Made by a program: the position numbers and the translations under genes. DNA of 64,000 bases from an uncultured Candidatus Saccharibacteria bacterium (GTDB lineage: Bacteria > Patescibacteriota > Saccharimonadia > Saccharimonadales > Saccharimonadaceae), in assembly GCA_964585155.1 (NCBI GenBank), contig CAZPCQ010000001.1, positions 8,070 through 72,069 of the forward strand, read 5' to 3'. A model generated the notes under the pieces. It did no database searches. It saw only the letters and a list, made by a program, of their open reading frames with translations, and had not been told where the DNA came from. Shown here piece by piece: positions 18,684-56,572 of this stretch. The first letter of the stretch is position 1, and each line of letters starts with the position of its first letter.

Positions 18684-20519
18684 TCAAACCTCTCCCCCAC
18701 TTACTCCCAGAATGATCACAAAATCCACATCCCCCGGCTCAATCCCTTCCGGCAGATCATTTATGCCTTTCACGGGTACTTTATACCGCTCTTCCAGTTT
18801 CGCTTTGGTCGCCGGGAAATCTTGTCCTACCGCATAGACACAATATTGCGCCTCACACACTCCTAATTCCGCATCACCTACCGCAATATTCTCAAATCCC
18901 ACCTCAACTAACCTATCTCTTTCCGCTCCGGCCACGCCATACTGACCGCTTGCATTATAAACTATCATCCGTGAATGCTCTCGTGTCATCGGGTCGCTGC
19001 TAAACATCTCTGCTACATATTCACGAATCTGACTATAATTACCTTCGCCCGCCGAGGGAACTACATACGATATATTATTAATCGTCGCCGTCGTCATATA
19101 GAATGTTTGTGTATCGTAATTCACCAGCGGTACTTGTCGGATATTTGCGATATTAAAGTCGCTCAGGATCTTTACCCCTGCCTTGATATTATCTGTCGAG
19201 AAATTTGACCTTAAATTATCTCCCAAGATATTCACCAAGTTAAACGCTTCCGTCACCCCTACCCCGTTTTGCACAATTTTATCCACGATTGCCTGGACGA
19301 TTTTTTGCTGTGTATTCCCGCGGGTGAAGTCTCCCCCTTGCGTCCCGTGTCGCGCCCGCGCCAAGCCCAGCGCCTGCTCACCGTTCACTGTCACTGGTAC
19401 GCCTGCCTGTGCCACCGCACCTGTCCAGCCATAATCATTAATATCTTCATCTAGCGTCACCGTAATCCCGCCCAGCGTATCAATAATATCAATCAGCGAC
19501 GCCCAGTTAATATGTGCATAATATTGGAACTTAATCCCCAAAATCGTCCCGATTTGGTCCATCAATGCCTGCGCCCCGGCTTCCTCATTTGTCCCATCTT
19601 GGTTATGACACCAAAAGACTTCGTTAATTTTTCCCGCCGAGCACGCCATCGAGACTTTTAGATCCCGCGGCAGACTCAGTAGTGCTACATCCTTCGTATT
19701 CTGGTCTACACTCACCACCATAATCGAATCCGTCAGCTGTGACCCACCGTGCTCGCCGTAAGCCGTGTCGCCACTCATATTATAGCCTTCCGTCCCGAAG
19801 ACCAAAACATTCGTCCTCCCGTTTTTATCCGTCTCAAACGGCACCGCATCCGATACCATCGAATGAATCGCATCCCACAAGCCCGAGCGTCCACCGGTTA
19901 GTCGTGCGATCAACTCATCCCCCCACTTATACACAATTCCACCGCCAATTACTAATATTCCTAGTATCACCGCCGTCACAATTCGCCCAATATGGCGTTT
20001 CTTCTTCGGCGCCCGTACTCGACGCTTCGGTTTTGTTGGCTCTTCTGGCTCATCTTCCTCTTCTGTTTCGTCATCCAGTACACTCTGCGCCAAAAACTCC
20101 CGCGTATCACCCTCTCCGCCCCATTCGCTCAGAAAATCACTCTCCGCCGTCTCATTTTTACTATAATTATTATACTGCGGCGCATTATTCTCCTGGCTTG
20201 CCAATAGTTCCGACCAATCCGCTTCCGCCCCCGCGTTAAAATCATCATTCGGCTCATTCATCTCTTCCGCATCAAAATCAAATGTCTGCACTGGATCCAA
20301 GAATGAGTTTACGGCCGGATTCTTCTTTTTTATCTTATCAATCGAGTTCAAGGCCGCTCGTCGCTCTGTTCGCGAGCGTTCTACCTGTGCGTGAGCCGCT
20401 TGCGTGCGGGTCGTCAAATCGACGGTATGCGCCGATGCCGAACGCCGCGCCGTATTCACAGCACGATTTGGTTGCGCATCATCCCGCACTTTTAACCCGT
20501 CAATTGTCGTCCTTGCCAT
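18684..20519 (-). CDS. LCP (LytR-CpsA-Psr) family glycopolymer transferase with LytR_C domain
   Basis: TNVLVFGT, TDSIMVV, LSLPRDL, ARARHG..GDFTR..QQ, VYNASG; RBS GAGGAG before the ATG at 20519. Confidence 0.9.
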   Translation of the reverse strand: MARTTIDGLKVRDDAQPNRAVNTARRSASAHTVDLTTRTQAAHAQVERSRTERRAALNSIDKIKKKNPAVNSFLDPVQTFDFDAEEMNEPNDDFNAGAEADWSELLASQENNAPQYNNYSKNETAESDFLSEWGGEGDTREFLAQSVLDDETEEEDEPEEPTKPKRRVRAPKKKRHIGRIVTAVILGILVIGGGIVYKWGDELIARLTGGRSGLWDAIHSMVSDAVPFETDKNGRTNVLVFGTEGYNMSGDTAYGEHGGSQLTDSIMVVSVDQNTKDVALLSLPRDLKVSMACSAGKINEVFWCHNQDGTNEEAGAQALMDQIGTILGIKFQYYAHINWASLIDIIDTLGGITVTLDEDINDYGWTGAVAQAGVPVTVNGEQALGLARARHGTQGGDFTRGNTQQKIVQAIVDKIVQNGVGVTEAFNLVNILGDNLRSNFSTDNIKAGVKILSDFNIANIRQVPLVNYDTQTFYMTTATINNISYVVPSAGEGNYSQIREYVAEMFSSDPMTREHSRMIVYNASGQYGVAGAERDRLVEVGFENIAVGDAELGVCEAQYCVYAVGQDFPATKAKLEERYKVPVKGINDLPEGIEPGDVDFVIILGVSGGEV

Positions 20520-20591
20520 CAAACTCCTCATTATTAGTCCAAAATCTGGACTTACCCAATTAATATTTGTGTGATATACTTATTATAACAT

Positions 20592-21725: not shown

Positions 21726-23894
21726 ATGTCAAAGTTCACCCAAGAACTACAATCCGAGTTTTCCGCTCGTCGTAATCTACTCTTTGTGGTTTTTGCTTTT
21801 TGTATGGTCGCCACGCTCTCATTTTTTGCGACTAGCCGTATGCACGAATCTTCCGCTGCCAATCTTAGTAACTTTACTCCTGGTAATATTATCAGTGATG
21901 CCGTGATGTCTAATTATAGTTCTATGAGCGAACAAGATATTCAAAACTTCCTCAATAGTAAGAATAAGTGTGATAATCGCGATTACAATCTTTACCTGCA
22001 GTACACTAGTTCCAAGCCCACCATTTCTTGGCATTGGGAAGGCGAGCCTTACAATGGTCATTTTGTTTGTCTAGCCGAAGAAAAGTTTGGCGAAACTGCT
22101 TCCGAGATTGGTACCGGCAAAACTGCCGCTCGGATTATTTACGAAGCCGCTCAGGCTAATCATATCAATCCTCAGGCTCTCCTCGTCCTTTTGCAAAAAG
22201 AATCTAGCCTCATTACTGACAAAGTTCCCAATTCTTACGACTATGGCCAAGCCACCGGTTACGGCTGTCCTGATACCGCCGCTTGTGATAAAAAGTATTC
22301 TGGCTTTAGCAATCAAGTTCACCGCGCCGCCGAACTTTTCCGCTATGTCCTCGACCACAACTCTGTTTATTATCCCGCTGGCCGTACTGTCTACGTTGGC
22401 TATCATCCTAATTCCAGCTGTGGCGGCACTCAAGTCCTCATCGAAAATCGCGCCACTGCCGCCCTCTATCAATACACGCCTTATCAGCCCAACGCCTCTT
22501 CTCTCGCCGCTGGTTATGGCCAAGGCGACACCTGCTCCGCCTACGGCAACCGCAATTTTTATCTTTATTTCACTGATTGGTTTGGCAGCACTCAGGCCGC
22601 CGTTGAAGGGGAACTAGTGGATATTCCGGACGGTTCCTATACTTTAGTTTCCGGACTTTCCGAGCAGCGCATTCTCGGCGCCTCTTCTCGTAATGTCCAG
22701 CTGAGTAATATTACCGCCGCTGATACCTGGACTATCAAGCGCGATACTAATGGCTTGTATGAACTTACCAATGCCGCCACCAACCTCCCGCTCTCCGTTG
22801 ATCAGTCTCAACCCGAATCCGGCACCAACGTTTCTGTCCGTGCCACTTCCACTGAATGCGCCAAAAAATGGAAAATTTACCAAACCAAAGATGGCTACCT
22901 CACTTTAGAATCTTCCTGTACCAGTGGTTTCGTTCTCGATGTTAATGGTGGCTCTTCTGCTGTTGGTACCAATATCCAGACTTATATCACCAACGCCAGC
23001 CTTTCCCAAAAATGGCACCTCCGCGCCAGCCAAACCCTCGACGACGGTGTCTATACTATCTCTTCTGCACTCGACCGCAGTGCTATGATTGACGTTGCCG
23101 GCGGTGGTACTCACAATGGTGCTAATATTCAGATCTATGAGAACAACCAAACCCTCTCTCAGAAGTGGCTCATTCAATACGATTCTAGTACTGGTCATTA
23201 TACTATTACAAACCCACTTTCCAATAAATCCATCGACATTTCTTATGGCAATATCAAAGATGGTACCAATATCTGGCTTTATGAGCATAATAGTACTTGT
23301 TCTCAGCAATGGAATATTATTGAATCCGCTGGTCGTTATGTTATTTCTTCTGCTTGTTCACCTCTTAAAGTTCTTGAACTCAAAAACAAATCTACTACTA
23401 ATAGCACTAACATCCAGCTCCAAACTTATGACCGTGATCACCTTGGCGAATCTTGGGTTATTACCAAATCTCCTGAGCCTTCCGATGGTACTTATGCGAT
23501 TCACGCTCGTCTTGATAACGATCAATTACTCGACGCCTCGAACGGCAATGTTCAACTTTATCAATCCCAGTCCGACCGTAACCAAAAATGGACCATCAAA
23601 AAATCTGTCACCTCGGGATATTACACTATCGTTGATCAATCTTCCGGCCAAGCCATAGATATTAAATATGGTGACATTCGCAACAGTACCAATATTTGGC
23701 TCTACGACCAGAACAACACTTGTTCTCAACAATGGTATATTATCGAAAGTCGGTCTGACCATTATACGATTTTCTCTTCTTGTGTCTTAAATTATACTCT
23801 TGATGTTACTTACGGTGATGCTCGTAATGGCACTAATATCCAACTTTATCAGTCCAACGGTACGATTTCCCAAGAGTGGTATTTTGCTCGTTAA
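21726..23894 (+). CDS. Surface protein: lysozyme-like N-terminal domain plus ricin-B lectin repeats
   Basis: INPQALLVLLQKES..ATGYGCPD; repeated QxW ricin motifs (GANIQIY..SQKW, GTNIWLY..CSQQW). Confidence 0.75.
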   Translation: MSKFTQELQSEFSARRNLLFVVFAFCMVATLSFFATSRMHESSAANLSNFTPGNIISDAVMSNYSSMSEQDIQNFLNSKNKCDNRDYNLYLQYTSSKPTISWHWEGEPYNGHFVCLAEEKFGETASEIGTGKTAARIIYEAAQANHINPQALLVLLQKESSLITDKVPNSYDYGQATGYGCPDTAACDKKYSGFSNQVHRAAELFRYVLDHNSVYYPAGRTVYVGYHPNSSCGGTQVLIENRATAALYQYTPYQPNASSLAAGYGQGDTCSAYGNRNFYLYFTDWFGSTQAAVEGELVDIPDGSYTLVSGLSEQRILGASSRNVQLSNITAADTWTIKRDTNGLYELTNAATNLPLSVDQSQPESGTNVSVRATSTECAKKWKIYQTKDGYLTLESSCTSGFVLDVNGGSSAVGTNIQTYITNASLSQKWHLRASQTLDDGVYTISSALDRSAMIDVAGGGTHNGANIQIYENNQTLSQKWLIQYDSSTGHYTITNPLSNKSIDISYGNIKDGTNIWLYEHNSTCSQQWNIIESAGRYVISSACSPLKVLELKNKSTTNSTNIQLQTYDRDHLGESWVITKSPEPSDGTYAIHARLDNDQLLDASNGNVQLYQSQSDRNQKWTIKKSVTSGYYTIVDQSSGQAIDIKYGDIRNSTNIWLYDQNNTCSQQWYIIESRSDHYTIFSSCVLNYTLDVTYGDARNGTNIQLYQSNGTISQEWYFAR

Positions 23895-38876: not shown

Positions 38877-39896
38877 CTATCTCAATTTCAACCCTTGCTC
38901 TTTCAAATACTTCAAAGTATCCTCCATCGCCTCATCCACTGTCAGCTCTGTCGTCCAGTGGAGTTCTTTTTCTGCTAATGTCGGGTCGGCATAGAACTCC
39001 GGCAAATCCCCCGCTCTGCGTCCCACGATCTGGCAGGGAAGTTTACGCTCACTTACCCGGTCAAACGCCTCCACCATCTGGAACACCGATCGCCCCTCGC
39101 CCGAGCCCAGATTATAGATTTGCACCCCTGCATCCATATGATTCAGCGCCGCCAAGTGTCCCTTCGCCAGGTCTACCACGTGGATGTAGTCGCGAATGCA
39201 ACTTCCGTCCGGCGTCGGGTAATCATCCCCGTACACCGACAACTGCTTCATCTGCCCCGTCGCCACCTTCATAATAATTGGCATCAAATTATTCGGCTTA
39301 TCATTCGGATCCTCACCCAGCAATCCCGACGGATGCGCTCCAATCGGGTTAAAATACCTCAAAATCGTCACCTGGAACTCCGGATCTGCCACCGCCACAT
39401 CCTTCAAGATTTCCTCGATCATATATTTCGTCCGGCCGTATGGGCTCGGGATCTCTTGCCCGGTCCGCATCGTTTCCACCAATTTTGGCGAATCCTGCAC
39501 TCCATATACCGTCGCCGACGAAGAGAACACGATCGCCTTGCAGCCAAACTCCTGCATACATTCCAGCAAGTTGATCGTTCCACCCACGTTATTCTCATAA
39601 TACCTTAGCGGCTGTTCTACCGACTCCCCTACCGCCTTCAGTCCGGCAAAATGTATCACCGCATCATACTCCGTCTCCGCAAATACCTTCGCCAGCGCCT
39701 CCGCATCCCTGAGGTCCACATTGTAAAATTTCGGCTTCGCTCCCGCGATCTCCGCAATCTTGTCCAGTACCTCGATCTTACTATTGTAGAGGTTATCCAG
39801 TATCTCCACCTCATATCCTGCCTGGATTAACTCCACCGCCGTATGCGACCCAATATACCCCGTCCCCCCTGTGACTAAAATCTTCTTTTTCTCCAT
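38877..39896 (-). CDS. galE: UDP-glucose 4-epimerase
   Basis: LVTGGTGYIGSH, HFAGLKAVGES, FSSSATVYG, YGRTK, LRYFNPIGAH. Confidence 0.97.
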   Translation of the reverse strand: MEKKKILVTGGTGYIGSHTAVELIQAGYEVEILDNLYNSKIEVLDKIAEIAGAKPKFYNVDLRDAEALAKVFAETEYDAVIHFAGLKAVGESVEQPLRYYENNVGGTINLLECMQEFGCKAIVFSSSATVYGVQDSPKLVETMRTGQEIPSPYGRTKYMIEEILKDVAVADPEFQVTILRYFNPIGAHPSGLLGEDPNDKPNNLMPIIMKVATGQMKQLSVYGDDYPTPDGSCIRDYIHVVDLAKGHLAALNHMDAGVQIYNLGSGEGRSVFQMVEAFDRVSERKLPCQIVGRRAGDLPEFYADPTLAEKELHWTTELTVDEAMEDTLKYLKEQGLKLR

Positions 39897-40519: not shown

Positions 40520-42178
40520 CTAGCTGCCAGTAGTAAGGCAGCGAATTGACTGTGCGAAAGTCTGTGACGTGCCAGAGGATGTTCCCGCATAGTTAGCAGT
40601 AAATGTAAAGGCGTTAGCATCATTTCCATTAGGTATGGAGGTCCAATATCCCCCTTGCTTGCCTACATCATCATAGTCAGCCCCATTGCTGTATCGTCCG
40701 GCAGGCACTAAGTATTGTGGTGAATGCCGCAAAGTTCCATAATCACTACCCGTCACTGAGACTACGAAACTAGTAGGTAATTTCCATCCTTTAGGGCATA
40801 TATCACCATTCCCGCTAGCAGCACCAACGTTGCTACCACGAGTATTACTTGCATTTGCTGTATTATATGGGTAGTAATCGCCAACAAGATAATGAGTGTC
40901 TGTATTATTGGGGATACTTCCATTAAAGACCTCGAAATATGCTGTACAGGTAATAACTGTCCCTATATGGCAACCGGTCGATGGCATAGCTGCTGTGGCG
41001 CTAGATGGTTTATATATGTATGTGCCAGGATTATAGTAATTACCTAAGTCTGAAAACGTAAACACAGAAGGTACATTAGTGTCTTCCGGTTTCAATGTAG
41101 TCCCTACAGACAACGGCAAATCAAGATTTTGTGTCATCCAACAATTTCCGTCTTTCAGCTTGCCAACCCAATAAATAGTTTTGCCTAATCCACTCGTAGT
41201 GCGATCATCTACAAGTTGGATTTGGTCTCCGACTGCCATATTTGAGCAGACGGTCGGATATTTTGCGAACTCTTGCATTGTTGTTTCGCCACTTATTACA
41301 TCCAAAACGTCCCACTCATTCGGTAATACGGATAAAAGTACATTTGAAGTATAATGGCCAGCAACTTTATCTTTGCCGAATTTTGCTGCAAAGGAGATCT
41401 TAAGGGCTGCGCCAGCTCCCCCGGTACTTTTGTCAGTAGTATAACTTTCGGTCTTAGTTGGTTCTACTTCCGGCATAGTGCTATATTGTAAACTGGAATC
41501 AGCTTTGCTGGATTCTGCTATTGCGTATCCCCAAGTATTGTCTGCAAAATTATTGGGGGACACATTTTCTCCTACTCCAAATAACACATCGGGCGCTTCT
41601 TGGTTTTGCAATTTGTTAGAGTTTGCCTGTACATATACTTTGTAGCCTTGTGTTCGGCACGCTGTCACTGTAAAATCTTTTGAGAGATAGCTGACTGCAT
41701 TATTGGCAATATCGTCGTCTACACTCTTACTTAAATTTACATCTCCGGTCATATCAAGCGCTAAAACTGGTTTTCCGGCGGCACACTCTTCTGCTGGAGT
41801 TTCCGCATATACTCTTTCTCCGCCAACTCCCACTGGAAATATCATTAAACCTAATACCAAAAGAAGAGCAAATGAGGCTAGTACTAGAGGAATAGTACTA
41901 GGTCTAAGCGACCCAACTCTTCCTTTCCTAAGAAACCGTCCGCAGCGCCACGAGCGAGGAAGAGGTGGCTCGCACCCGTAACGACGGGCTGCGAGAACAC
42001 CGCGTTTCGTGGAAAGTGAAGAGTTGAGGTCGCTTGCGTCAGAGAACTTATCATTACTTGGCTTATCTTTGTAGAAATAAGTATAAGTACTTTTATCACT
42101 ATGAAGAAGATTTTGTCCATCACTAACGCAATGTAACAACGTACTTAAGTTTGGTATTTTCTTTATTCTATGGCGCAT
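40520..42178 (-). CDS. FISUMP domain surface protein 2
   Basis: LKDGNCWMTQNL, GDYYPYNTA, ICPKGWKLP, GGYWTS, QSIRCL; starts MRHRIKK like protein 1. Confidence 0.8.
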   Translation of the reverse strand: MRHRIKKIPNLSTLLHCVSDGQNLLHSDKSTYTYFYKDKPSNDKFSDASDLNSSLSTKRGVLAARRYGCEPPLPRSWRCGRFLRKGRVGSLRPSTIPLVLASFALLLVLGLMIFPVGVGGERVYAETPAEECAAGKPVLALDMTGDVNLSKSVDDDIANNAVSYLSKDFTVTACRTQGYKVYVQANSNKLQNQEAPDVLFGVGENVSPNNFADNTWGYAIAESSKADSSLQYSTMPEVEPTKTESYTTDKSTGGAGAALKISFAAKFGKDKVAGHYTSNVLLSVLPNEWDVLDVISGETTMQEFAKYPTVCSNMAVGDQIQLVDDRTTSGLGKTIYWVGKLKDGNCWMTQNLDLPLSVGTTLKPEDTNVPSVFTFSDLGNYYNPGTYIYKPSSATAAMPSTGCHIGTVITCTAYFEVFNGSIPNNTDTHYLVGDYYPYNTANASNTRGSNVGAASGNGDICPKGWKLPTSFVVSVTGSDYGTLRHSPQYLVPAGRYSNGADYDDVGKQGGYWTSIPNGNDANAFTFTANYAGTSSGTSQTFAQSIRCLTTGS

Positions 42179-42590
42179 CTGCCCTCCTTGTGGGTATTAA
42201 TTATCGCCCCGCAGCCGCCATCTTTGAGGAGGGCCAACTCCATACAAAAATGGCGCCGCGAGGCGAAACCACAATCTAGAAGCAATCTGCTCAAGAACGT
42301 TAGCTTTCTCGTGACGCCATTTTCACGTTCTCAAACAAATACACTCAAATAAGCAATTGTCATAATTCCAAATTGTGATTTCGCACTTCCAATTATATAT
42401 CAAACTGTCTGCGTTTTCAAGCATTTTTCTCGCCTCCCCAGCGAGCTGACGTACGTATCATAAGTTTCATAACCCACTCTTTAGCAGTTAGGATTAAAAA
42501 CCTTCAGAGCTGTCAACAACACGGCCTCCTAAGGCAGATACCTCCTCCTCTCCATCTCTCCTCTAGCGAATTAATCTTGATATTATGCTC

Positions 42591-42915: not shown

Positions 42916-44343
42916 ATGAAACGGGACACGGGTTTGATTTTCCACGCTTTCCTGATTTTGGGTGACGCGTGCGCGATTTTACTGTCCTTTTTGGCGGCTT
43001 ATTTTATGCGCACTCATTTGGACCAACGCCCATTTTATTTTGAGGCTGACCCTTGGCGCTTCGTTTTGTCAATGCTGGTTATGGTCCCCGTTTATCTTCT
43101 AATTATGGCTGCCCTCGGGCTGTACAAGAAATCCGTTTTTCTCAGCAATAGTCGCTGGCACGAAATCGGCCGCATTTTCCTCGCCTCTGTCATTGGGATG
43201 ATGGCGATTATCACCTGTGACTTCTTCTTTTCCACCGACCTTTTCCCGGTCAAAGTTATGGCATTATATGCTGTTTTCACCTGTTTTGTCTTGCTTAGTC
43301 TTTTCCGCGGTGGCGTCCGCCTCGTCCGCAGTTTTGCTCTCAAGCACAGCCACAAAGCCGCTCTTCGTGCCATCATTGTCGGCAATAGTCAAAATACCGA
43401 GTACCTCGCTGACTACATCTCCGCTTATCCCGAGTCTGGCTTCCGTCTTGCCGGTATAGTCGCCTCGCAGAAATATATCCCCAAAGATCTCCGCCGCAAA
43501 CAATATTCCTCTCTCAAAGAGGCCTTGCGCAAGGCCCGCCCCGACGTTATTTTCCAAACCGATGAGCGCCGTACTGATTACGTCTATCGTCAGGCTGTCA
43601 ATCGTCATCTCTATTATTATTTCGTGCCTTCTAGTGCTGCTCTTACCGCCCAGACCGGAGAAATGGAGCTCGTCGGCAGTACCCCGGCTATCTTAGTCAA
43701 AGTCACCCCTCTTGCCGGCGGTGCCCGCTTTGCCAAGCGCTGTTTCGATCTGTTTTTCGGGTCGATTATTTTACTGCTTGCCCTCATTCCGATGGTTCTC
43801 ATCTGGCTAATCGAGAAGATCTCCGATCCACACGCCCCTGCCGTCTATAGTGATATCCGCCTCTCCCGCTATAACAAGAAGTTCAAGATTTACAAATTCC
43901 GCTCCATCAAGTCAGAATACAACGGCCTCACCCCAGAGGAGGCCTTCGAGAAAATGGGCAAACCTCAGCTGATCAAAAAATACCGTGCCGGCGGCGATAT
44001 GATCCCTAACGACCCTCGTATCACCAAACTCGGCCACTTCCTCCGCGCCACTTCGCTGGACGAATTGCCGCAATTGTTTAACGTTGTCAAAGGCGACATC
44101 TCTCTCGTCGGTCCCCGTGCCCTCGTCCCCGGAGAACTCCGCCATTACGGCGATCGCTCCCTCCTCCTCTCGGTCAAATCTGGGCTTACTGGCCTCGCCC
44201 AAGTCTCCGGCCGCCGCGACATCGGTTTCGACGAACGTCGCGCCCTCGACCTCTATTACATCCAAAACTGGTCTATCTGGCTTGATCTCCGCATCCTCCT
44301 CCGCACGGTTGGCGCTGTTCTACTCTGTAAAGGGGCGAAATGA
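42916..44343 (+). CDS. Polyprenyl-phosphate sugar-1-phosphate transferase (WcaJ/WbaP family)
   Basis: KRCFDL, FKIYKFRS, DPRITKLGHFLRATSLDELPQLFNV, SLVGPR, DLYYIQNWS. Confidence 0.93.
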   Translation: MKRDTGLIFHAFLILGDACAILLSFLAAYFMRTHLDQRPFYFEADPWRFVLSMLVMVPVYLLIMAALGLYKKSVFLSNSRWHEIGRIFLASVIGMMAIITCDFFFSTDLFPVKVMALYAVFTCFVLLSLFRGGVRLVRSFALKHSHKAALRAIIVGNSQNTEYLADYISAYPESGFRLAGIVASQKYIPKDLRRKQYSSLKEALRKARPDVIFQTDERRTDYVYRQAVNRHLYYYFVPSSAALTAQTGEMELVGSTPAILVKVTPLAGGARFAKRCFDLFFGSIILLLALIPMVLIWLIEKISDPHAPAVYSDIRLSRYNKKFKIYKFRSIKSEYNGLTPEEAFEKMGKPQLIKKYRAGGDMIPNDPRITKLGHFLRATSLDELPQLFNVVKGDISLVGPRALVPGELRHYGDRSLLLSVKSGLTGLAQVSGRRDIGFDERRALDLYYIQNWSIWLDLRILLRTVGAVLLCKGAK

Positions 44344-46337
44344 CCTCTAGGAACTCTCCAAAGGTGGGCTCACGAGCGCAAAACCCCTCAAAATCACCCA
44401 AAAATGACCAACGGTCAGTTTTTCCTGTCAAAAACGCCCAAAAATCTCAAAAACCGAAAAAAGATAATTCTTCGTCGGAAACCGCGCTTTTTGACAAAGA
44501 ATCAAACTGGTCTTTGGAGGTTAGACACCTTTCTCCCAGAAAGGGGTCTAAATATGGCGTCGCCCTCGTCTGTGACTGGCTCACCACCCCTGGTGGCGCC
44601 GAAAAAGTTCTCCTCGAGCTCCACCGTATGTATCCCGACGCCCCCATCTACACCTCTCAATATAGTAAAAAGGGAATCGACTGGTTTGCTGACGCCGATG
44701 TTCGCACCGGCTGGCTCCAAATCTTCCCGAGAGCCTTCCGCAAATTCATCGGTCCCTTACGTCAGCTCTATTTTAGCCACCTCGACCTTTCCAGCTACGA
44801 TCTTGTTATCTCTGTTACTGGTGCTGAAGCCAAATCCGTCCGTACGAAACCTAGGCAACAATCTTCATCAAAAAGCTCCAAAACCGACCTCACCGTGCCC
44901 AAAAAACACCCATCATCAAAAAATGCACCTTCCATCGAACCGCAAACCGGCGCCACCCACCTCTGTTACTGTCACGTCCCTACCCAATACTATTGGCAAA
45001 TGTATGACAAATATGTCGCAAACCCTGGTTTTGGCCTGCTCAACCCTCTTGTTCGCCTCGCTTTTAGAGTTCTAGTCAAGCCTCTCCGCCAGGCCGATTA
45101 TCGCGCCGCTCAGCAGCCCGACCAGTTTATCACCATCTCAAATTACGCCAAAGATCAGATTCAGAAATACTATCAGCGTGACGCTGTTGTCATCGCTCCG
45201 CCGGTCGAAGTTGCCAAATTTACCCGCTCTTCTGTGTGCTCTCTGCCGGAAAACTCTAAAAATCATCGACGGAATTCTACTTTTCCACCGGAAGTAGCCC
45301 AGAAATCCACTGCTAGTGGGGAATTATCCACCAAATCTCCCAAGATTTCCACAAATTCTCCACAAGAAATCCACTGCACGCCTCATACTTTTCCATCAAG
45401 ATCATCTACTTCTCCACAGATTATCCACAGCCAAAACGTAGTTTATCCACAGGGGATTACAACTTCTCCACAACATTTCCACCAGAAATCCACCGAAAAC
45501 CGTAACTTTTCCACAACTTCTCCACAGAATATAGCAGATCTTTCCACCGTTAGCACTAAAATTTCCACAACTTTTCCACAAGTTTTCCACAATCAAAGTC
45601 AAAGTTATCCACAGGACGGATATTTTATCATTTCTTGTCGCCAGGTGAACTGGAAACGCGTTGACCTTGCCATCACCGCCTGCAAATCTCTTCATCTCCC
45701 CCTCAAAGTCATCGGTAGCGGCCCCGAGCATTCACGCCTTGTCAAACTTGCCGATAACTGTCCTAATATTGAATTTATCCCTTGGCTCGACACTGGAGAA
45801 TTAGCCCATTTTCTGCAAAATGCCACCGCCTATCTTTTTCCTAGCCTTGAGCCTTTTGGCATCGCTGCTGTCGAGGCTCTTGCTGCCGGTTGTCCCGTCA
45901 TCGCCTATCGCGAGGGCGGCAGCCAAGACTTTATCGAAGAAGGGAAGAATGGGCTCTTCTTCGATCAGCAGACTCCGGATTCTCTTATCAAGGCTCTCCA
46001 TACTTTCTATGATTACGACTTCGACCCCAATATTGTCGCTCAGACCGCCCAGCGTTTTAGTCCTGACCACTTCCGCCAGCAGATTCAGTCTCTCATCAAT
46101 CAATCTTTTCACGGTATCGTGAAATCAGATCTCGACCCCAGTCAAAGCCACCCCAGTTCATCGACCTCATCTCACTCCAAGCCTATCACGCAAGCCAAAC
46201 AAGGTCACTCAAATCCCAAAGCATCAAACTCCTCATCCCGCCCCAAATCCATCACGAAATCCAAACCTCAGCCCAAAGATCTCATATCAGACCATCGTGC
46301 CAATAAAAAATCAACCAAGAAAGGAACAAATTTATGA
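44340..46337 (+). CDS. GT4 glycosyltransferase with several low-complexity insertions
   Basis: VALVCDWLT..GGAEKV, WKRVDLAI, EPFGIAAVEALAAGCPVIAY. Confidence 0.88.
   Translation: MTSRNSPKVGSRAQNPSKSPKNDQRSVFPVKNAQKSQKPKKDNSSSETALFDKESNWSLEVRHLSPRKGSKYGVALVCDWLTTPGGAEKVLLELHRMYPDAPIYTSQYSKKGIDWFADADVRTGWLQIFPRAFRKFIGPLRQLYFSHLDLSSYDLVISVTGAEAKSVRTKPRQQSSSKSSKTDLTVPKKHPSSKNAPSIEPQTGATHLCYCHVPTQYYWQMYDKYVANPGFGLLNPLVRLAFRVLVKPLRQADYRAAQQPDQFITISNYAKDQIQKYYQRDAVVIAPPVEVAKFTRSSVCSLPENSKNHRRNSTFPPEVAQKSTASGELSTKSPKISTNSPQEIHCTPHTFPSRSSTSPQIIHSQNVVYPQGITTSPQHFHQKSTENRNFSTTSPQNIADLSTVSTKISTTFPQVFHNQSQSYPQDGYFIISCRQVNWKRVDLAITACKSLHLPLKVIGSGPEHSRLVKLADNCPNIEFIPWLDTGELAHFLQNATAYLFPSLEPFGIAAVEALAAGCPVIAYREGGSQDFIEEGKNGLFFDQQTPDSLIKALHTFYDYDFDPNIVAQTAQRFSPDHFRQQIQSLINQSFHGIVKSDLDPSQSHPSSSTSSHSKPITQAKQGHSNPKASNSSSRPKSITKSKPQPKDLISDHRANKKSTKKGTNL
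45281..45613 (+). repeat. Phased DnaA-box array inside the GT4 coding sequence
   Basis: 20 (T/A)T(A/T/C)TCCAC-type 9-mers, every gap 11, 21 or 22 bp; perfect TTATCCACA at 45421, 45443 and 45605. Confidence 0.9.
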
Positions 46338-48328
46338 AGATCCTCCGCAACCTTCTCTGGCCCCTAGTCTACGCCCTCCCTGCCGTCCTCTTTTTCTCCT
46401 ATCACCCCGTCATCGGCCTCGGCGCCAACTCCTCCATGAACTTCGAACTCTCCCTTCCGCTCCTCTGGCTGATTATTTTTGATTTCTTTAGTTTCATTAC
46501 AATGGTCGTCCTCTTCGTTCAAAAACGTCAATCAGCGCAGCACAAATCCACTTCAAAATCAATAGGCCAAGCATCCGCCCGCTCTAAGCATCACTCTGGC
46601 CCCTGGGGACCTCACCTCCCTGGCCTCACCGACCGCCGCTTCTTCCTCTTAGCCATTTTCCCGCTCTACCTCACCATCTCGGTTTTCTGGTCGGCCAATC
46701 CCCTCCGCGGTCTCTTCACCGCCGGCGTGATGTGGGCTGTCTTTTTCGCCGTTTTCTCTCTGTTATTTATTGTCCCCCAGACTGGCGCTCCTCGCCGCCT
46801 CCGCACTCACGTCCTCTTGACAATGTTCATCTCCGCTGTTATCGTTTGCAAATTTTGCTATGCTCAGAGTATTATGGATACTTGCTTTGGCCTTTCCCGC
46901 GATGCTACTCTCCTCTGCCCCGGCTGCACTTACCGCTCCTTCGGCTTTCCTCATCCTTCCGGCTTCGCCATCGAGCCCCAGTTTATGGGCAATCTCCTTC
47001 TCGCCCCCACCCTCACCGCGCTCTATCTCGTCGCCTTCCGCTCGCGCAAATTCGCCAATACCGTTATCCATGAAGCCTCTCATCTTGAGAATGAGGCCGA
47101 ACATAATCTCCTTCACGACCAAGTTCACCTCCCCGAGGTCAACTGGAAACTCTGGCAACGCATCGGTATGATCATCCTCGCCGGCTTCCTTTCGATGACG
47201 CTGTTTTTCACCTTCTCCCGCGGCGCCATTTACGCTTACGTCGTCGCCATCTTGAGTATGCTAATTTTTGCCCTCAAGCGTCACCAATTCCGCTGGAGCC
47301 TCATCGCTATCCCCGTTGTCAGTTTCATCCTCTCGCTCAGCCTCCAGGGAACATTCGCCGCCGTCGGCCCCACCGCTGAGACTTTCTTCTCCGGCGTCGC
47401 CAAATCCGTCCACCAGCTCTCCCTCGGCCTCATCGACTTCCGTTCGCTCGCTTATGAGCCCTCCGAGGACGCCATCGAGCAATATAGTTATGAGCATGCC
47501 GTCCCCACCTCTGTCGCTCGGGAGATTCTCAAACGTCAATATCAATCCCAGCTCTCTTCTCAATCTGTGAAAAACTCCTCATCAAACGGTGGAAAACCTG
47601 TGGATAAAACCAGCCTAGATGTGGAAAAGAATGACCAAAATGTAGATAAAATCGATCAAGATGTAGAAAAAACCGCCGAAATCATCGACCACGAAATCAC
47701 CAAAGAGGAAACCAAGTTAGAAAACGAGGTTGATACTACGCTTGAAGATATCATTTTCGAGGGCTACGTTCCCGAATCCACCAATATCCGCCTGCACCTC
47801 AATCGCGCCGCCATCGACACCTGGCTTTCCGCCCCCGGCCATCCCGAGTCCGGCCTCAGTATTGGTCTCAAATGTTCCCACTCCGACCCCTGCCTTGCCT
47901 CTGGTAAACTCACTCCCACCAGCATCCTCTTCGGCGTTGGCCTTGGTGGTGCCGGCACCGCCCTCTATCTCAATTCTCCCGTTACTGACATTAACTCGCC
48001 CAAAGAAATCGTCCAAAACGAACCCTTCTCCCTCCTCTTAGAAACCGGACTCGTCGGCATCGCTCTGGCTATTTTCGGACTCCTCATCATCTTCGCGCCC
48101 CAGATTTTCACGCGCAAATTCCTCGACGGCAAATCCGCTCCAGCTACCAAATCCACCCCCAGCCCCTTCTGGCGCCATCCCGCTCTCCCGCTTCTCCTCT
48201 CCCTCATCGTCGCCTACGTCATCACCCTCAATTTCTTCTCCGGCCTCCCCAACGCCCTCCAGATTTACCTCATGCCGCCCCTCCTCTACCTCATCTTTTC
48301 TGACCACTACCGCGTCACCACTGTTTAG
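46334..48328 (+). CDS. O-antigen ligase/polymerase-like (Wzy_C) membrane protein
   Basis: Many TMs; GFAIEPQ, TFSRGA, FGVGLGG, NEPFSLLLETGLVG. Confidence 0.75.
   Translation: MKILRNLLWPLVYALPAVLFFSYHPVIGLGANSSMNFELSLPLLWLIIFDFFSFITMVVLFVQKRQSAQHKSTSKSIGQASARSKHHSGPWGPHLPGLTDRRFFLLAIFPLYLTISVFWSANPLRGLFTAGVMWAVFFAVFSLLFIVPQTGAPRRLRTHVLLTMFISAVIVCKFCYAQSIMDTCFGLSRDATLLCPGCTYRSFGFPHPSGFAIEPQFMGNLLLAPTLTALYLVAFRSRKFANTVIHEASHLENEAEHNLLHDQVHLPEVNWKLWQRIGMIILAGFLSMTLFFTFSRGAIYAYVVAILSMLIFALKRHQFRWSLIAIPVVSFILSLSLQGTFAAVGPTAETFFSGVAKSVHQLSLGLIDFRSLAYEPSEDAIEQYSYEHAVPTSVAREILKRQYQSQLSSQSVKNSSSNGGKPVDKTSLDVEKNDQNVDKIDQDVEKTAEIIDHEITKEETKLENEVDTTLEDIIFEGYVPESTNIRLHLNRAAIDTWLSAPGHPESGLSIGLKCSHSDPCLASGKLTPTSILFGVGLGGAGTALYLNSPVTDINSPKEIVQNEPFSLLLETGLVGIALAIFGLLIIFAPQIFTRKFLDGKSAPATKSTPSPFWRHPALPLLLSLIVAYVITLNFFSGLPNALQIYLMPPLLYLIFSDHYRVTTV
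47566..47670 (+). repeat. Small phased DnaA-box array inside the ligase-like gene
   Basis: Boxes at 47566, 47588, 47599 (perfect TGTGGATAA), 47620, 47641, 47662. Confidence 0.75.
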
Positions 48329-48513: not shown

Positions 48514-48924
48514 TTAACGCCGTTTTCTAGGATCGTAATGATCGCTCATCTCATAGAACGCAACACAGAGCCCTATATGTAGCAGTATCGCCCAGTCCAC
48601 CGCGTATTCCACGCTTTTCTCAGTTCCGAAAATGCCGTAAGTCAGGCTGAGATATAGCAGCACCAATATCAGCTGCCCCAGGTAGGTCAATCCTATCTGT
48701 ACTTTCTCCTTCACTCCGTTATATCCGAACCAATCATCCCTCAGTATGTCACGCACCATAAACAGCAAAAACGTCAATACGGCCAAGACAGCCGCCGGCA
48801 CGATAACAGTTAGGATTGTGAAGAAGATCGCCGGCAACCCCAGTCCGCCTATTGCTTCTCCGAGTATTTTCCAGAATTCCCAGAATCTCTCCCAAAACAG
48901 CCCCCAACTCAACATCAGATTCAC
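48514..48924 (-). CDS. Hypothetical membrane protein (3-4 TM)
   Basis: Hydrophobic ORF with its own promoter and terminator. Confidence 0.6.
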   Translation of the reverse strand: MNLMLSWGLFWERFWEFWKILGEAIGGLGLPAIFFTILTVIVPAAVLAVLTFLLFMVRDILRDDWFGYNGVKEKVQIGLTYLGQLILVLLYLSLTYGIFGTEKSVEYAVDWAILLHIGLCVAFYEMSDHYDPRKRR

Positions 48925-49189
48925 CCCATATTAAAAATTTCCAACAAAAACCCTGCTGGATGCTAGGATTTCTCATCCCATATTTCCATTATAGCACGCA
49001 TCTGCCAAAAAGTCAAGACCATACCGCGTGAATCCCTAAGCCTTGCGTCGCCAACCCGAGGCGCCGCTCTAGGGGGGGTAAAAATTCCTAGAGACACAAA
49101 GTAGTTTAGGGATTCGGGTCATACCCACACATACGACTATCAATCTTAAAAACCTCCCCCGCTTGCGCAGGGGAGTTGGGTGGTTAGTT

Positions 49190-49753
49190 TTAGTCTTTGT
49201 CGGCGCCATCTTTTGCCTGCTGCAGTCTCTCTCGGATTACCTCCGACCGCAGCGCCGCCTTGAACACGCCCGCAATTAAATTCAGTTTAGCTAACGGGCA
49301 GACAATGCTATCTACGCTTTTACACCGTCCCAGGTAAAGTCCCCAAGTTGGCACGTTGGGGGCTACATCTACTCCTCCCCTGACGATATTCGCTATCATA
49401 CCAAGCTCAAGCGCCGACTTGCCGACTATCACCGCGGTTCTCAGATCCCTGGCGCCAAGTCCCCGCTCATCCAGCACCATACATCCACCGGCACTGTCCG
49501 AATCAGGCGCTTTTATGCCAAAACCGCCAACGCACACCCCGATAAACTGCAACAGCGTATACACTAAATCCAGCTCTTCATCTCTGACATTTGTTGTCTC
49601 ACTCAGACAGAGAGCGATGTGCTCGGTTGGCTCGTCATCGTCGCGACCAAAATCCACCGCCCCAGCGCTCGTCTTGATGCCTAATCTGGCCGCCAGCTGA
49701 CTGAGCTCGATCATCTTCGCCGCCGTCTCACTATCAAAAGCCCGTTCTGCCAT
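49190..49753 (-). CDS. Hypothetical protein
   Basis: RBS AAAGGAGG before MAERAFD; terminator at 49152-49177. Confidence 0.65.
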   Translation of the reverse strand: MAERAFDSETAAKMIELSQLAARLGIKTSAGAVDFGRDDDEPTEHIALCLSETTNVRDEELDLVYTLLQFIGVCVGGFGIKAPDSDSAGGCMVLDERGLGARDLRTAVIVGKSALELGMIANIVRGGVDVAPNVPTWGLYLGRCKSVDSIVCPLAKLNLIAGVFKAALRSEVIRERLQQAKDGADKD

Positions 49754-50252
49754 TAAAATTCCTCCTTTGAGTAGTCTAAAGCCACTCCATCCAGTGGCCT
49801 TATTTCTACCCAAACAGGGAATTAACTAACCAAAATGTACCTAAGCCACTACAGATAATAGACTGTAGCCAGCCCATATCTCCACTATAGCACACATCTG
49901 CCAAAAAGTCAAGGTTGCTTTTCCGCCCAATCATATGATTTTATACTATCGACTAAAATAAAATCAATACCGCCTACACTTCTCTCCTGCAAAGTCAAAC
50001 TAACTCGCGAAATCTCACTATTTTCCACTCAAAACCTAAATTCTGTGCTATAATAGAACTGCTGAAAGACAATTTGATTAAGTAACCTATGGTTTTATAT
50101 GTAGCCTACATTTTTCATAATGCATTAAAATGGCGTCACGAACGGCTAAAAAAGTGCATTGTGATCGTAAGGTTACTCTGTTGTCTTTCAGCACCGTCTC
50201 GCGGCGCCATTTTTGTATTAAGCCTCGGGCGGTGAACTAATAAAGGAGGCAG

Positions 50253-51737
50253 ATGCTAAAACTCAACACTAAATTAAAATACCCACTCTTCACAATAACT
50301 TTTGCGTTGGGTGGATTTTTCTTATTTCAATACCTAACTTTTATTCCCGAATACTCCAACGCCACAACTATAGAAACTCCCGTCTACGACGATTCCAAAG
50401 TCGACACGCGCACTCTTTCTGACATTACTTATATGCAAGAAATGACATCTGGAATATGTAAACGTTCTGTAAAAAATGAAAGTAAACAACTTATCGATGG
50501 CCGTGATGGAAAACACTATTGGGTAACAAAGCTCGTTGGTCCAGGCGGTGAAGAAAAAAATGGATGTTGGATGACGCAAAATTTGGATTTCGATTTGTGG
50601 AATGAGGAGACTAATGAACCAATAGTATTAAAAGTGGATAATTTAAATTTTATGGGCACAGATATAGAAAAGAATTGGGAGTCTACTTCTGGGAGATCTG
50701 TGCTATGGGCGGATTCGGGGAGCGAGACAGTTAAGTACTATGACCCGGGGTACTATTTGTATAAAGGCTTTTCTTTACGTCAGCCGGCGTCTCGCGATTT
50801 GGCATATGGCAAGGCATCGGAAAATTTGACCTTGACGGATGCTCATTACCTTCAAGGGAATTACTATTCATTCAACGCTGCTACGGCTGGCAAAGGGGCA
50901 AATTTTGGCCTTGTGGGTAAGGATGAAGATGTACGGAGTAGTATTTGTCCGAAAGGCTGGAGGCTACCTACGGCTCTTAGTGATGATGGGGTGTCATTCA
51001 ATTTTTTAAATACAGTAAGCACAACTAAGATATTTTCATCACCGTATTTCTTTATAAATAGCGGTTTTGTGAATGGAGGCTTGCTAGATGATGCCTTCGC
51101 TGGTAGATACTGGTCTTCTACGGCTTATGCTTATAGGGACGATGCTTATGATTGGGGTTTTGCTGATGGTGACGAGTGGCCAGCGCTTGGTATAATTTAC
51201 AGATATGAGGGAAAGACTATAAGATGCGTAGCGAGGGACGATACTGAAGATGTGGAGACTCCGGGCATTGATAATCCAAACACCTCCGTCACCGTCCCAA
51301 ACATAATAACACTAGACGTAAGTAATAATGTAAATATAGAAACAAATACTAATACAGTAAACGAAGGTAGTTTCACCGCTTCCGTCAGTTCTAATGCTCC
51401 ATATAGCATTAGTCTTAGTACCACGGATGGTGGCCACACCGACTTACGTAATGATAATACCAACTCCTCCATTCCCGCATTAAACCCTACTTCTAATATC
51501 ACAGAGAGTAGTAGTAAATGGTGGGGAATCAAATGTACTAACTCAGGCACTTCCACGGGTTGTACTAAAACAACCTATACTGGTCTTACTAATCACTTAA
51601 CTCCCACTCTTTTCTATACATCAACTCAAAGTACCTCTAACCAACTCACCCACTTCACCATCGGCATCCAAACCTCTCCCGACCTCCCAAGTGGCACTTA
51701 TTCCACCAGTATATTAGTTACTGCATCTCAGAATTAG
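50253..51737 (+). CDS. FISUMP domain surface protein 3 (FISUMP first, beta-sandwich domain last)
   Basis: NGCWMTQNL, GNYYSFNAA, ICPKGWRLP, GRYWSST, TIRCVAR; RBS AAGGAGG. Confidence 0.8.
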   Translation: MLKLNTKLKYPLFTITFALGGFFLFQYLTFIPEYSNATTIETPVYDDSKVDTRTLSDITYMQEMTSGICKRSVKNESKQLIDGRDGKHYWVTKLVGPGGEEKNGCWMTQNLDFDLWNEETNEPIVLKVDNLNFMGTDIEKNWESTSGRSVLWADSGSETVKYYDPGYYLYKGFSLRQPASRDLAYGKASENLTLTDAHYLQGNYYSFNAATAGKGANFGLVGKDEDVRSSICPKGWRLPTALSDDGVSFNFLNTVSTTKIFSSPYFFINSGFVNGGLLDDAFAGRYWSSTAYAYRDDAYDWGFADGDEWPALGIIYRYEGKTIRCVARDDTEDVETPGIDNPNTSVTVPNIITLDVSNNVNIETNTNTVNEGSFTASVSSNAPYSISLSTTDGGHTDLRNDNTNSSIPALNPTSNITESSSKWWGIKCTNSGTSTGCTKTTYTGLTNHLTPTLFYTSTQSTSNQLTHFTIGIQTSPDLPSGTYSTSILVTASQN

Positions 51738-52554: not shown

Positions 52555-52631
52555 CGCGGGATAGAGCAGCCTGGTAGCTCGTTTGGCTCATAACCAAAAG
52601 GTCGTTGGTTCAAATCCAACTCCCGCCACCA
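52555..52631 (+). tRNA. tRNA-Met(CAT), initiator type
   Basis: Cloverleaf CGCGGGA..TTTGG-CTCATAA-CCAAA..GTTGG-TTCAAAT-CCAAC-TCCCGCC-A-CCA; C1:C72 mismatch; encoded CCA; promoter TTGATT-17-TATAAT upstream. Confidence 0.95.
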
Positions 52632-55042: not shown

Positions 55043-56572
55043 CTACTCCACCTCGCTCGAGCTCTCTTCCTCACTATCGACGTCGACAACCTTATTCAAA
55101 TCTTCGTCAATATCTTCCTCGGGCTTCTTATAATCATCTTTAACTACTTTCGGCTCGTCTTTCACTACCGAGTCAGCCTCGTCTTCAGTCTCTACCGTGG
55201 CGTTATCTTTGCTTACTTCGGCTTCTTCTTTTTGCTCGGCTTCGTCGGCCTCTTCGTTGAGCTCTAGCATATCTACCACTGCATCTTCCGCTACATCCGC
55301 CTCTTTCTCTAATTCTGCACTCTCCTCAGCGTCACCTTTTTCCGCCTCGCCATCCTTAGCCTTTTTCGTTTTCTTGCCAGATTTCTTTGCGTCTTCAGGC
55401 TTCTCTGTACCGTCACTATCAGTCGCCTTCTCTGCACTCTCATTCGTATCGGCATTCTCATCTTCGTCCGACTCACTCAGCGCATTCAATAATGCATCTT
55501 CCGCATTCTTACGTTTCTTCTTTTCCGGCGCCTTTGCCAGCTCGATGTCTAGATCGTATCCGGTCAATTTCGACGCCAAGCGCACATTTTGCCCCTGTTT
55601 ACCAATCGCGATCGACTGCTGGTCTTCATTTACATAGACTTTCGCCTTCTTCCCATCGATTTCCACCTTCACCACCTCTGCCGGGCTCAGCGCCTCCCGG
55701 ATATACTCCGACGGATTATCGCTCCAGGTAATAATATCAATTTTCTCCCGGTCGCCGATCTCGTTCATAATCGCCTGTACGCGCATCCCGCGTCCCCCGA
55801 CGAACGTTCCTACTGGATCCACTCCCGCACTATTCGCCGTCACCGCAATCTTTGTCCGCCGGCCCGCCTCACGCGCGATTCCTTTAATTGACACTGCGCC
55901 ACTATCCAGCTCTGGCACCTCTTGCCGGAACAGATTCTCAATAAACGCCGTATTTCCCCGCGAGAGAATTAGTTGCGCCTTTGAATCGTCGTGCTCCACT
56001 CCCTTGATGTAAACTTTCAAACGCTCACCTACAGTATAATATTCACCATCAATCTGCTCGCTCCGCGGCATAATCCCGCTTGCGCGCCCCATATCGATAT
56101 GCACCACCCGCGGATCCACTCTCGAGACCACTCCCACCGCGATCGTCCCGATTTTATCCTCAAACTCCGCCAACACCGCATCGCGCTCTGCCTCGCGTAG
56201 CCGTTGCACCACCACCTGCTTCGCCGTCATCGCCGCCACCCGGCCAAATTCTTCCACGTCATACGCTTCCTCCACGATGTCACCAATCTCCGCATCGGCC
56301 TTCAGTTTCTTCGCCTCTTCCTGCGGAATCTCTGTCGCCGGGTTATAGGCCAACCCATCTTCGATCACCTCGCGGCTCACATAAGCCTTCGCCGTGCCAT
56401 TATTCGTATCCAAAAGCGCCCGCACATTCATCTCACGCTCACCGTGATCTCGCCGCCACGCTGCCGCGATCGCCATCTGCACCGCATCCAGCACCGCCTC
56501 TTTCGAGAGGCCTTTTTCCTCCGCGATTACATCCACCATCGCCGTCATTTGTTTCAGATCTAGATTTTCCAT
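55043..56572 (-). CDS. nusA: Transcription factor NusA with a long acidic C-terminal tail
   Basis: FGRVAAMTAKQV, AREAGRRTKIAV, DPVGTFVG, AIGKQGQNVRLASKLTG. Confidence 0.96.
   Translation of the reverse strand: MENLDLKQMTAMVDVIAEEKGLSKEAVLDAVQMAIAAAWRRDHGEREMNVRALLDTNNGTAKAYVSREVIEDGLAYNPATEIPQEEAKKLKADAEIGDIVEEAYDVEEFGRVAAMTAKQVVVQRLREAERDAVLAEFEDKIGTIAVGVVSRVDPRVVHIDMGRASGIMPRSEQIDGEYYTVGERLKVYIKGVEHDDSKAQLILSRGNTAFIENLFRQEVPELDSGAVSIKGIAREAGRRTKIAVTANSAGVDPVGTFVGGRGMRVQAIMNEIGDREKIDIITWSDNPSEYIREALSPAEVVKVEIDGKKAKVYVNEDQQSIAIGKQGQNVRLASKLTGYDLDIELAKAPEKKKRKNAEDALLNALSESDEDENADTNESAEKATDSDGTEKPEDAKKSGKKTKKAKDGEAEKGDAEESAELEKEADVAEDAVVDMLELNEEADEAEQKEEAEVSKDNATVETEDEADSVVKDEPKVVKDDYKKPEEDIDEDLNKVVDVDSEEESSSEVE

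Follow-up and report, generated by a model that had tools for sequence, protein, structure and literature searches.

Three FISUMP-like genes in a 64,000-nucleotide (nt) stretch of DNA from an uncultured Candidatus Saccharibacteria bacterium (the window) are each preceded by a folded RNA leader of ~150 nt, lying between the promoter and the ribosome-binding site (RBS), in which two helices cross and the second ends in a U tract. Both helices covary strongly in an alignment of related leaders, and Saccharibacteria genomes and metagenomes yielded ~50 further copies; nearly all of these, including all those with a fully readable downstream gene, precede a FISUMP-type gene. The element represents an undescribed RNA family with a new architecture, and its putative mechanism belongs to a class that is already known: we favour, with moderate confidence, a cis-acting terminator/antiterminator transcription attenuator with two exclusive folds.

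A crossing-helix leader upstream of FISUMP genes

Upstream of the third gene an inverted-repeat search returned a 13-nt pair, a/a' (50060-50072 / 50181-50193; 100% complementary, 108 nt apart), and a 15-nt pair, b/b' (50127-50141 / 50199-50213; 87% complementary, 57 nt apart), whose strand order (a < b < a' < b') makes the helices cross. The U tract occupies 50210-50214, and the ATG (50253) lies 38 nt further on. An earlier note on this DNA, which had placed these helices, their crossing and the U tract before the ATG from the letters alone, is borne out by the search and by the sequence. It had also claimed the same topology, with different sequences, for genes 1 and 2; the topology was recovered at both, and the difference in sequence holds fully for helix a and only partly for helix b, as gene 2 differs from gene 3 in helix a (GCGAAATCACAAT / ATTGTGGTTTCGC) and is almost identical to it in b/b', while gene 1 differs in both. 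Minimum-energy folds revealed that a/a' is the mere base of a far longer imperfect hairpin (the rod), b occupying its apical loop and b' the 3' tail, and the leader folds of genes 3, 2 and 1 have z-scores of -5.3, -4.9 and -5.35 (0/200 shuffles as stable). With these folds and the Rfam searches below, the note's proposal of a structured leader common to all three paralogs and outside Rfam is upheld.

A protein-based scan of one genome per species gave 80 loci (labelled L001 onward), nearly all from Candidatus Saccharibacteria assemblies and often with many paralogs per genome. A blind search of the 450 nt upstream of start codons for perfect crossing stems followed by TTTT recovered the a-b-a'-b'-U layout in most of these loci, and a looser duplex search brought the total to 38 leaders. 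The covariance model of the b-to-b' segment (R1) has exactly three matches in the window (59.6, 58.2 and 46.8 bits), each preceding one FISUMP paralog, and 44 further sense-strand matches in the 80 loci, those beyond its training set lying before additional FISUMP-type paralogs. A metagenome DNA-motif scan, made without protein information and filtered with R1, yielded 11 good matches, and the downstream gene was FISUMP-type in 6/6 cases where it was complete. Neither the layout searches nor R1 found the element at the Clostridia FISUMP loci L034 and L036. A contig labelled uncultured Blautia sp. (L062) has both a FISUMP-type gene and a typical leader (50.7 bits), and may be a misbinned Saccharibacteria contig. 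A weak R1 match (28 bits; L031 6453-6550 (-)) is followed by a 320-aa open reading frame (ORF) with a Cys/His-rich, zinc-finger-like start that is not FISUMP, and an insertion sequence may have landed there between leader and gene. Two window candidates from a pattern scan (49057-49211 (+) and 23011-23115 (-)) were dropped, the covariance model giving no confirmation.

Searches against Rfam returned tRNA-Met alone for the whole window at gathering scores, only a chance snoRNA match on the opposite strand for the gene 3 leader at E values up to 10, and tRNAs and RNase P only for 20 related loci. A literature search on Saccharibacteria/Patescibacteria structured RNAs, riboswitches and FISUMP found no paper on the element. 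The tRNA-Met gene lies at window 52555-52631 (+), and a class A RNase P RNA stands beside the FISUMP locus of a related genome (L023 4968-5468 (+)).

The broader alignment, in which the earlier note had expected covariation if its proposal was right, shows it strongly in both helices. For b:b' (17 pairs, 37 leaders), 89.7% of cells were paired against 77.6±0.9% after shuffling (0/500 reached the observed value) and at most 54% in slid registers, with a covariation score of 0.521 (control 0.288) and compensatory, two-sided changes in 11 of the 17 pairs. The signal is larger in a:a' (16 pairs, 28 leaders), where 83.0% of cells were paired against 52.5±1.8% in the control (0/500) and at most 45% in slid registers, the covariation score was 0.760 (control 0.217) and 15 of the 16 pairs carry compensatory changes. 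The a:a' register was set without reference to pairing, a being counted from 6 nt past the -10 hexamer and the end of a' taken as the MAFFT column anchored on the conserved junction; a second version of the test gave 83% against 54±2.5% with partners permuted among loci. A register taken from the duplex-predicted start of b' gave 46% paired, the same as the slides, since the duplex ran into a' and some -10 boxes were mispicked, and it was replaced by the alignment anchors. Cognate rod arms pair at a mean of -36.3 kcal/mol (-15.3±4.2 for non-cognate arms), the cognate arm ranking top in 31/38, and cognate b:b' at -27.5 kcal/mol (-16.5±5.9 non-cognate). In both helices the sense strand is more stable than the antisense in 35/38 leaders, the mismatches being G:U when read on the strand of the gene, and R1 scores are 40-71 bits in sense and 23-37 bits in antisense. 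These results identify the element as a structure of the mRNA and not of the DNA.

In the 28 aligned leaders a TGnTAYAAT box, five purine-rich nt and then helix a, which usually starts with UG, are conserved; this fixed register between the -10 box and helix a predicts that the 5' end of the RNA is base-paired, with a start site 6-7 nt past the box. A 5' arm of 50-75 nt pairs with a 3' arm of 35-55 nt, and gaps of ~0-10 nt separate b from the arms. Helix a differs from leader to leader, while b follows the consensus ~UAAAUGGCRCCRUGAGG and b' ~CCUCGYGGUGCCAUUUUUGUAU, and the gap from a' to b' is 0-2 nt in most leaders and 5 nt in gene 1. Across 37 leaders the b:b' core pairs GGCRCC with GGYGCC and is followed by A/G, by four U positions that are invariant or at least 90% conserved (usually five U are present) and by GU; an A tract 5' of b matches the U tract, and the U residues past the paired part of the tract are conserved as well. 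Most 5' arms also contain a run of 4-6 U, often G/C-UUUUU-G, 10-35 nt upstream of b (e.g. 50110-50114) that resembles the end of b', with matching A runs following b in the 3' arm; these runs may be the trace of an origin of the leader by internal duplication.

The spacer from the U tract to a strong RBS varies from 36 to 300 nt. In many short-spacer leaders a downstream strand is the continuous complement of the end of a' and of b' (gene 2, -43.2 kcal/mol; L049, -39.5 kcal/mol). Junction-to-downstream pairing was rejected as a universal third helix, as it is confined to a subset (cognate rank 1-3 in ~14/36; mean -12.8 vs -10.4 kcal/mol). Where the spacer is long (L005, L007, L015, L017, L019, L020/L021, L024, L056, L058, L059 and L072), a second hairpin with CUUUUUG(A/U)U after it lies downstream of the first U tract and upstream of the start codon; in L007 and L020 it resembles a second, rodless b...b' module. 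The compact variants (L005, L009, L024) have two rod helices interleaved with a regular b:b' + e:e' hairpin, and a abuts b. In this compact class the 5' strand of the second hairpin overlaps with the strand complementary to the a'/b' junction, and the hairpin would act as a fail-safe terminator.

Competing folds and proposed transcription attenuation

Over the segment between +1 and the U tract, the mean energy is -47.9 kcal/mol for the rod state, in which b' is free, and -43.0 kcal/mol for the b:b' state; the difference (rod minus b:b') ranges from -15.6 to +15.3 kcal/mol per leader, the rod being lower in energy in 29/33 leaders and the terminator being the minimum-energy fold of the compact variants L005 and L024. 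When b:b' is forced, the 3' arm folds on itself and prolongs b:b' into one long hairpin. Against its own dinucleotide shuffles the 3' arm has a mean z of -1.40 (32/36 below zero, p ~8e-7; 5' arm, -0.53), and is thus self-complementary beyond chance, so that it can pair either with the 5' arm or with itself. Helix geometry predicts that the full rod and b:b' are mutually exclusive and cannot coexist, because 45-50 bp separate b from the exit point of b' and the gap between a' and b' is only 0-2 nt. The crossing order was confirmed in the leaders, and a:a' and b:b' might form together if the inner rod melted; in L005, L009 and L024 the helices cannot coexist since a abuts b.

The attenuation mechanism that we propose would proceed as follows. 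Transcription would start ~6-7 nt past the extended -10, making helix a the very 5' end of the RNA, and the 3' arm, once made, would zip onto the 5' arm to form a long imperfect rod holding b in its apical loop, 45-50 bp from the base. Strand b' would then emerge at the rod base out of reach of b, no hairpin would form before the U tract and the polymerase would enter the FISUMP gene, the rod acting as the antiterminator. If the 5' arm were unavailable or the rod destabilised, the 3' arm would fold on itself and b:b' would form, giving a long G+C-rich hairpin followed by a U tract that would serve as an intrinsic terminator and turn the gene off. In read-through RNA a b-like downstream strand (b'' or j') would capture b' and lock that state. 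We infer both termination at the U tract and the existence of an input that switches the folds; our leading guess for the trigger is a factor recognising the conserved b loop, and it is probably not a small-molecule pocket.

In the 37 aligned leaders b:b' has the make-up of an intrinsic terminator, a G+C-rich stem running directly into the U tract, and the genome's ordinary terminators also have ~5 U (e.g. window 49154-49175 (-)); NusA is encoded in the window (55043-56572 (-)). Several observations weigh against attenuation. A separation of 50-60 nt between the two strands of the terminator stem is unusual for an intrinsic terminator, and a simple pattern scan does not call the b:b' hairpin one. 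Folding order favours the rod in every leader, and energy does so in the 29/33 mentioned above, so that the model requires a trigger, which the analysis did not identify; the aligned leaders showed no conserved unpaired positions other than those in b and b'. Some long-spacer leaders have the second hairpin and U tract without an evident antiterminator, and at least two RNA-library contigs of L025 cross the U tract, although such low-depth assembled contigs carry no 3'-end information.

Contigs cover the L025 leader 2-6x in one mouse-gut metatranscriptome and two "transcriptomic" runs, and read-through RNA probably exists at this locus. High depth at L025 4402-4478 falls on the end of a FISUMP-type gene (...IRCV, stop), and its likeliest cause is contigs from other family members. 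Among the sequencing runs that contain the window sequence there are host-labelled DNA runs only and no RNA run; for related loci there are faecal "FL-cDNA" runs labelled genomic, whose contigs match mainly conserved segments (b', CWMTQNL) that other leaders and genes have in common with them. Control by a leader peptide was rejected, since within the first 70 nt a start codon preceded by a Shine-Dalgarno-like motif occurs in only 3/32 leaders and is conserved in no case. Nor is the AUG inside b conserved, AUGG alternating with ACGG in covariation with b', and b' as an anti-Shine-Dalgarno strand was dismissed because CCUC is present in some leaders only.

The leader may alternatively be a constitutive structural 5' untranslated region (UTR), in which the rod guards the mRNA from +1 against 5'-end-dependent decay, a b:b' pseudoknot on a:a' or a b':b'' hairpin adds stability and the U tract is simply the partner of the A tract; we regard this as rather unlikely. 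Helix a always lies 6 nt past the -10 box and the 5' end is predicted to be paired in all leaders, a' abuts b' in most (0-2 nt), which would permit coaxial stacking, the whole 5' UTR of gene 2 folds as the rod with an adjoining b':b'' hairpin (-88.4 kcal/mol, z -5.9), and the L025 contigs span the U tract, all of which would fit a stabilising structure. It would not, however, call for U residues conserved beyond the paired stretch, and the self-complementarity of the 3' arm is superfluous for a pure rod. The compact variants exclude coexistence of the helices and have the terminator as minimum-energy fold, the long leaders carry extra terminator-like hairpins, and the a'-b' gap of 0-2 nt bars the full rod and b:b' from forming together unless the inner rod melts. 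That the leader yields a separate product, either a ~150-nt small RNA ended at the U tract or a b hairpin freed by RNase III cleavage of the rod to act in trans on the b' of paralogs, seems improbable to us: the covariation of b with b' is locus-specific and speaks for pairing in cis, the orientation is constant at 36-300 nt upstream of the RBS of a single family, the short spacers show no second promoter, and a trans-acting RNA would hardly be expected in tens of copies per genome. Such a product would nonetheless fit the strong promoter and terminator-like end of the leader, its rod of ~45-50 bp would be a plausible RNase III substrate, and b and b' are alike enough among paralogs (non-cognate b:b' mean -16.5 kcal/mol) to allow some cross-pairing.

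A small-molecule riboswitch, with a pocket at the a:a'/b:b' junction or in the b loop shifting the balance between rod and terminator, is in our opinion very improbable. No Rfam riboswitch was matched, either at gathering scores (window and 20 loci) or at E values up to 10 (gene 3 leader), the conserved nucleotides fall almost entirely in covarying helices while the internal loops of the rod vary freely in sequence and size, and the genes concerned encode secreted or surface proteins rather than metabolic or transport functions; these points have to be set against two near-isoenergetic folds with a terminator-type expression platform, sequence conservation of the junction (ACACC) and of b, and the presence of the motif before many genes of one family. 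The earlier note had spoken of an attenuator or riboswitch-like switch; its attenuator part fits best, given the terminator features of b' and the U tract and the competing folds, and its riboswitch part is unsupported, as no ligand-pocket core was seen and no family matched. A role in DNA, as recombinase inverted repeats forming an invertible switch, paired operators for a dimeric regulator or a miniature inverted-repeat element (MITE), is largely refuted and carries hardly any weight with us. The inverted repeats do adjoin the promoter of variable surface-protein genes and the b core (ATGGCGCCAT) is nearly palindromic, but the promoter lies upstream of and outside both repeat pairs, the arms are wholly different between copies and complementary within each copy (non-cognate -15.3 vs cognate -36.3 kcal/mol), the mismatches are G:T on the gene's strand with the sense strand folding better in 35/38, and complementarity extends with compensatory changes into non-palindromic flanks. 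No inverted form was present in DNA metagenome contigs at two loci, and the fixed position between promoter and FISUMP gene argues against a MITE or a repetitive extragenic palindromic (REP)-type repeat.

Feature coordinates, FISUMP proteins and gene neighbourhood

Table 1. Positions in the window of the leader elements and genes at the three FISUMP loci.
Feature	Position	Strand	Basis or remark
Gene 3 extended -10 promoter TGTGCTATAAT	50044-50054 (hexamer 50049-50054)	+	helix a starts 6 nt past hexamer
Gene 3 rod 5' arm	50060-50126 (helix a 50060-50073)	+	helix a is the rod base, at about the predicted +1 of the transcript; fold, inverted repeat, a:a' covariation
Gene 3 strand b AAAATGGCGTCACGAACGG	50127-50145	+	rod apical loop; 5' strand of terminator-like helix; fold, inverted repeat; R1 match 50122-50223, 58.2 bits
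Gene 3 rod 3' arm, switching segment	50146-50193 (a' 50180-50193)	+	fold, inverted repeat, self-structure test
Gene 3 strand b' CCGTCTCGCGGCGCC, then A and U tract (50210-50214)	50194-50214	+	abuts a' directly
Gene 3 downstream strand CGGGCGGTGA	50226-50235	+	complement of a'/b' junction; would pair with b' in read-through RNA
Gene 3 RBS GGAGG (50245-50249) and FISUMP-like gene 3 (ATG 50253, 494 aa)	50245-51737	+	
Gene 2 -10 hexamer TATAAT	42392-42397	-	
Gene 2 rod 5' arm	42325-42386 (helix a GCGAAATCACAAT 42372-42384)	-	fold
Gene 2 strand b GAAAATGGCGTCACGAG, apical loop	42308-42324	-	fold; R1 match 42237-42328, 59.6 bits
Gene 2 rod 3' arm	42263-42307 (a' ATTGTGGTTTCGC 42263-42275)	-	fold
Gene 2 strand b' CTCGCGGCGCCA with U tract (42246-42250)	42246-42262	-	
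Gene 2 b'' CAAAGATGGCGGCTGCGGGG, second downstream partner of b'	42207-42226	-	predicted ~20-bp hairpin in read-through RNA, -43.2 kcal/mol
FISUMP-like gene 2 (552 aa)	40520-42178	-	
Gene 1 extended -10 promoter TGTGGTATAAT	18530-18540	-	
Gene 1 5' arm with side hairpins	18437-18524 (helix a TATCTCACTATGCGG 18510-18524)	-	fold
Gene 1 strand b GAACGGCACCTTAGGT	18421-18436	-	fold; R1 match 18322-18442, 46.8 bits
Gene 1 3' arm	18354-18420 (a' CCGCGTAGTGAGATA 18354-18368)	-	fold
Gene 1 strand b' ACCTAGGGTGTCG with U tract (18331-18335)	18331-18348	-	5-nt linker between a' and b'
FISUMP gene 1 (ATG 18229, 590 aa)	16457-18229	-	

The protein of gene 1 scores above the TIGR02145 cut-off (45.8 bits; cut-off 41.65) and those of genes 2 and 3 below it (29.4 and 36.3 bits), and all three reach 20-30 bits with Pfam PF09603 (cut-off 33.9), sharing the motifs CWMTQNL, ICPKGWRLP and IRCV. 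These FISUMP-like proteins carry an N-terminal membrane or signal segment; the term adhesin, applied to them in the earlier note, is an unproven assumption. Genes 1 and 2 and many homologues encode a basic start (MRHRIKK...), a hydrophobic segment and a ~200-aa domain (...TWGYA..., ...GHY..N..LSV...) before the FISUMP domain, and gene 3 is without this N-terminal part and has a ~170-aa C-terminal extension rich in Ser, Thr and Asn. Pfam has no family over the ~200-aa domain or the gene 3 extension, and solved structures gave nothing useful for the gene 1 protein.

Cell-envelope genes lie around the leaders (42916-48328 (+), 38877-39896 (-) and 18684-20531 (-)), encoding a Bac_transf initiating sugar transferase, a GT4 glycosyltransferase, a weak Wzy/O-antigen-ligase-like membrane protein, an NAD-dependent epimerase/dehydratase and LytR-CpsA-Psr; YidC and a KhpB/Jag-like protein are encoded at 14407-15987. 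A 41-nt segment occurs twice (49873-49913 and 48977-49017; 92.7% identity), each copy being a near-consensus minus-strand promoter (TTGACT, 17 nt, TGnTATAGT or TATAAT) that precedes one of two small minus-strand ORFs (49190-49813 and 48514-48924) without a Pfam match.

Significance and relation to known leaders

Saccharibacteria and other Patescibacteria are tiny episymbionts, and we know of very few regulators and almost no described regulatory RNAs in Patescibacteria. One review passage mentions riboswitches only as possible engineered tools (PMC11665869). The element described here has strong comparative support and stands, often in many copies per genome, before members of a large, fast-diversifying family of secreted or surface proteins. 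Should it prove to be an attenuator, it would offer a handle on the control of the surface repertoire and a natural expression switch for genetics in cultivated strains. The unusual terminator/antiterminator layout, in which a 5'-anchored rod keeps one terminator strand far from the other, deserves its own Rfam family. More speculatively, and with low probability in our estimation, the leaders may form a regulon-wide RNA switch peculiar to Saccharibacteria, in which a signal or factor (e.g. host-bacterium contact) reads the b loop and sets read-through of tens of FISUMP paralogs together. Were this so, the rod stability of each paralog (rod minus terminator, -15.6 to +15.3 kcal/mol) would give each gene its own threshold, and a graded or stochastic surface-protein repertoire would be set at the RNA level and not by DNA rearrangement.

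The closest parallels are the Gram-positive terminator/antiterminator leaders (riboswitch platforms; PyrR, TRAP, and LicT/SacY on ribonucleic antiterminator (RAT) sites), which likewise lie between promoter and RBS and have exclusive folds of similar energy, one of them a G+C-rich hairpin with a U tract. In the Saccharibacteria leader, however, the putative antiterminator is a ~50-bp rod anchored at the first nucleotide of the transcript with the 5' strand of the terminator in its apical loop, so that spatial separation would work beside competition for the 3' arm; 50-60 nt separate the terminator strands, and neither a sensor domain nor a known protein-binding motif was found. In Bacillus subtilis pyrG the 5' end of the transcript is the antiterminator, made by cytidine triphosphate (CTP)-sensitive reiterative addition of G, and it pairs with the terminator's own 5' strand. 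The two leaders are alike in that the extreme 5' end of the RNA joins the pairing that prevents the terminator, whereas the Saccharibacteria helix is templated, is 13-19 nt long and pairs just upstream of b', and nothing suggests reiterative transcription.

The T-box (RF00230) also combines a long irregular 5' hairpin with a following terminator/antiterminator, and b' (GUGGUGCC) is superficially like the T-box sequence (GGUGGUACC), but the rod lacks conserved specifier-loop, K-turn and distal-loop motifs, the invariant GG follows a U, a C or another base rather than a fixed U, and the downstream genes are unrelated to amino acids. A T-box/tRNA interaction (b ~...CACCA, b' ~UGGU) was rejected, as those bases vary and RF00230 was not matched. 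The ompA, aprE and ermC leaders carry 5'-terminal stabiliser stem-loops, which are simple hairpins. Their helices, like helix a, start within a nucleotide or two of +1, although unlike the Saccharibacteria leader they have no conserved crossing helix, U tract or alternative fold. The order a-b-a'-b' is finally that of an H-type pseudoknot, from which the Saccharibacteria leader differs in having its short linker between a' and b' rather than between b and a', stems of 13-19 bp and, in the compact variants, an a strand that abuts b.

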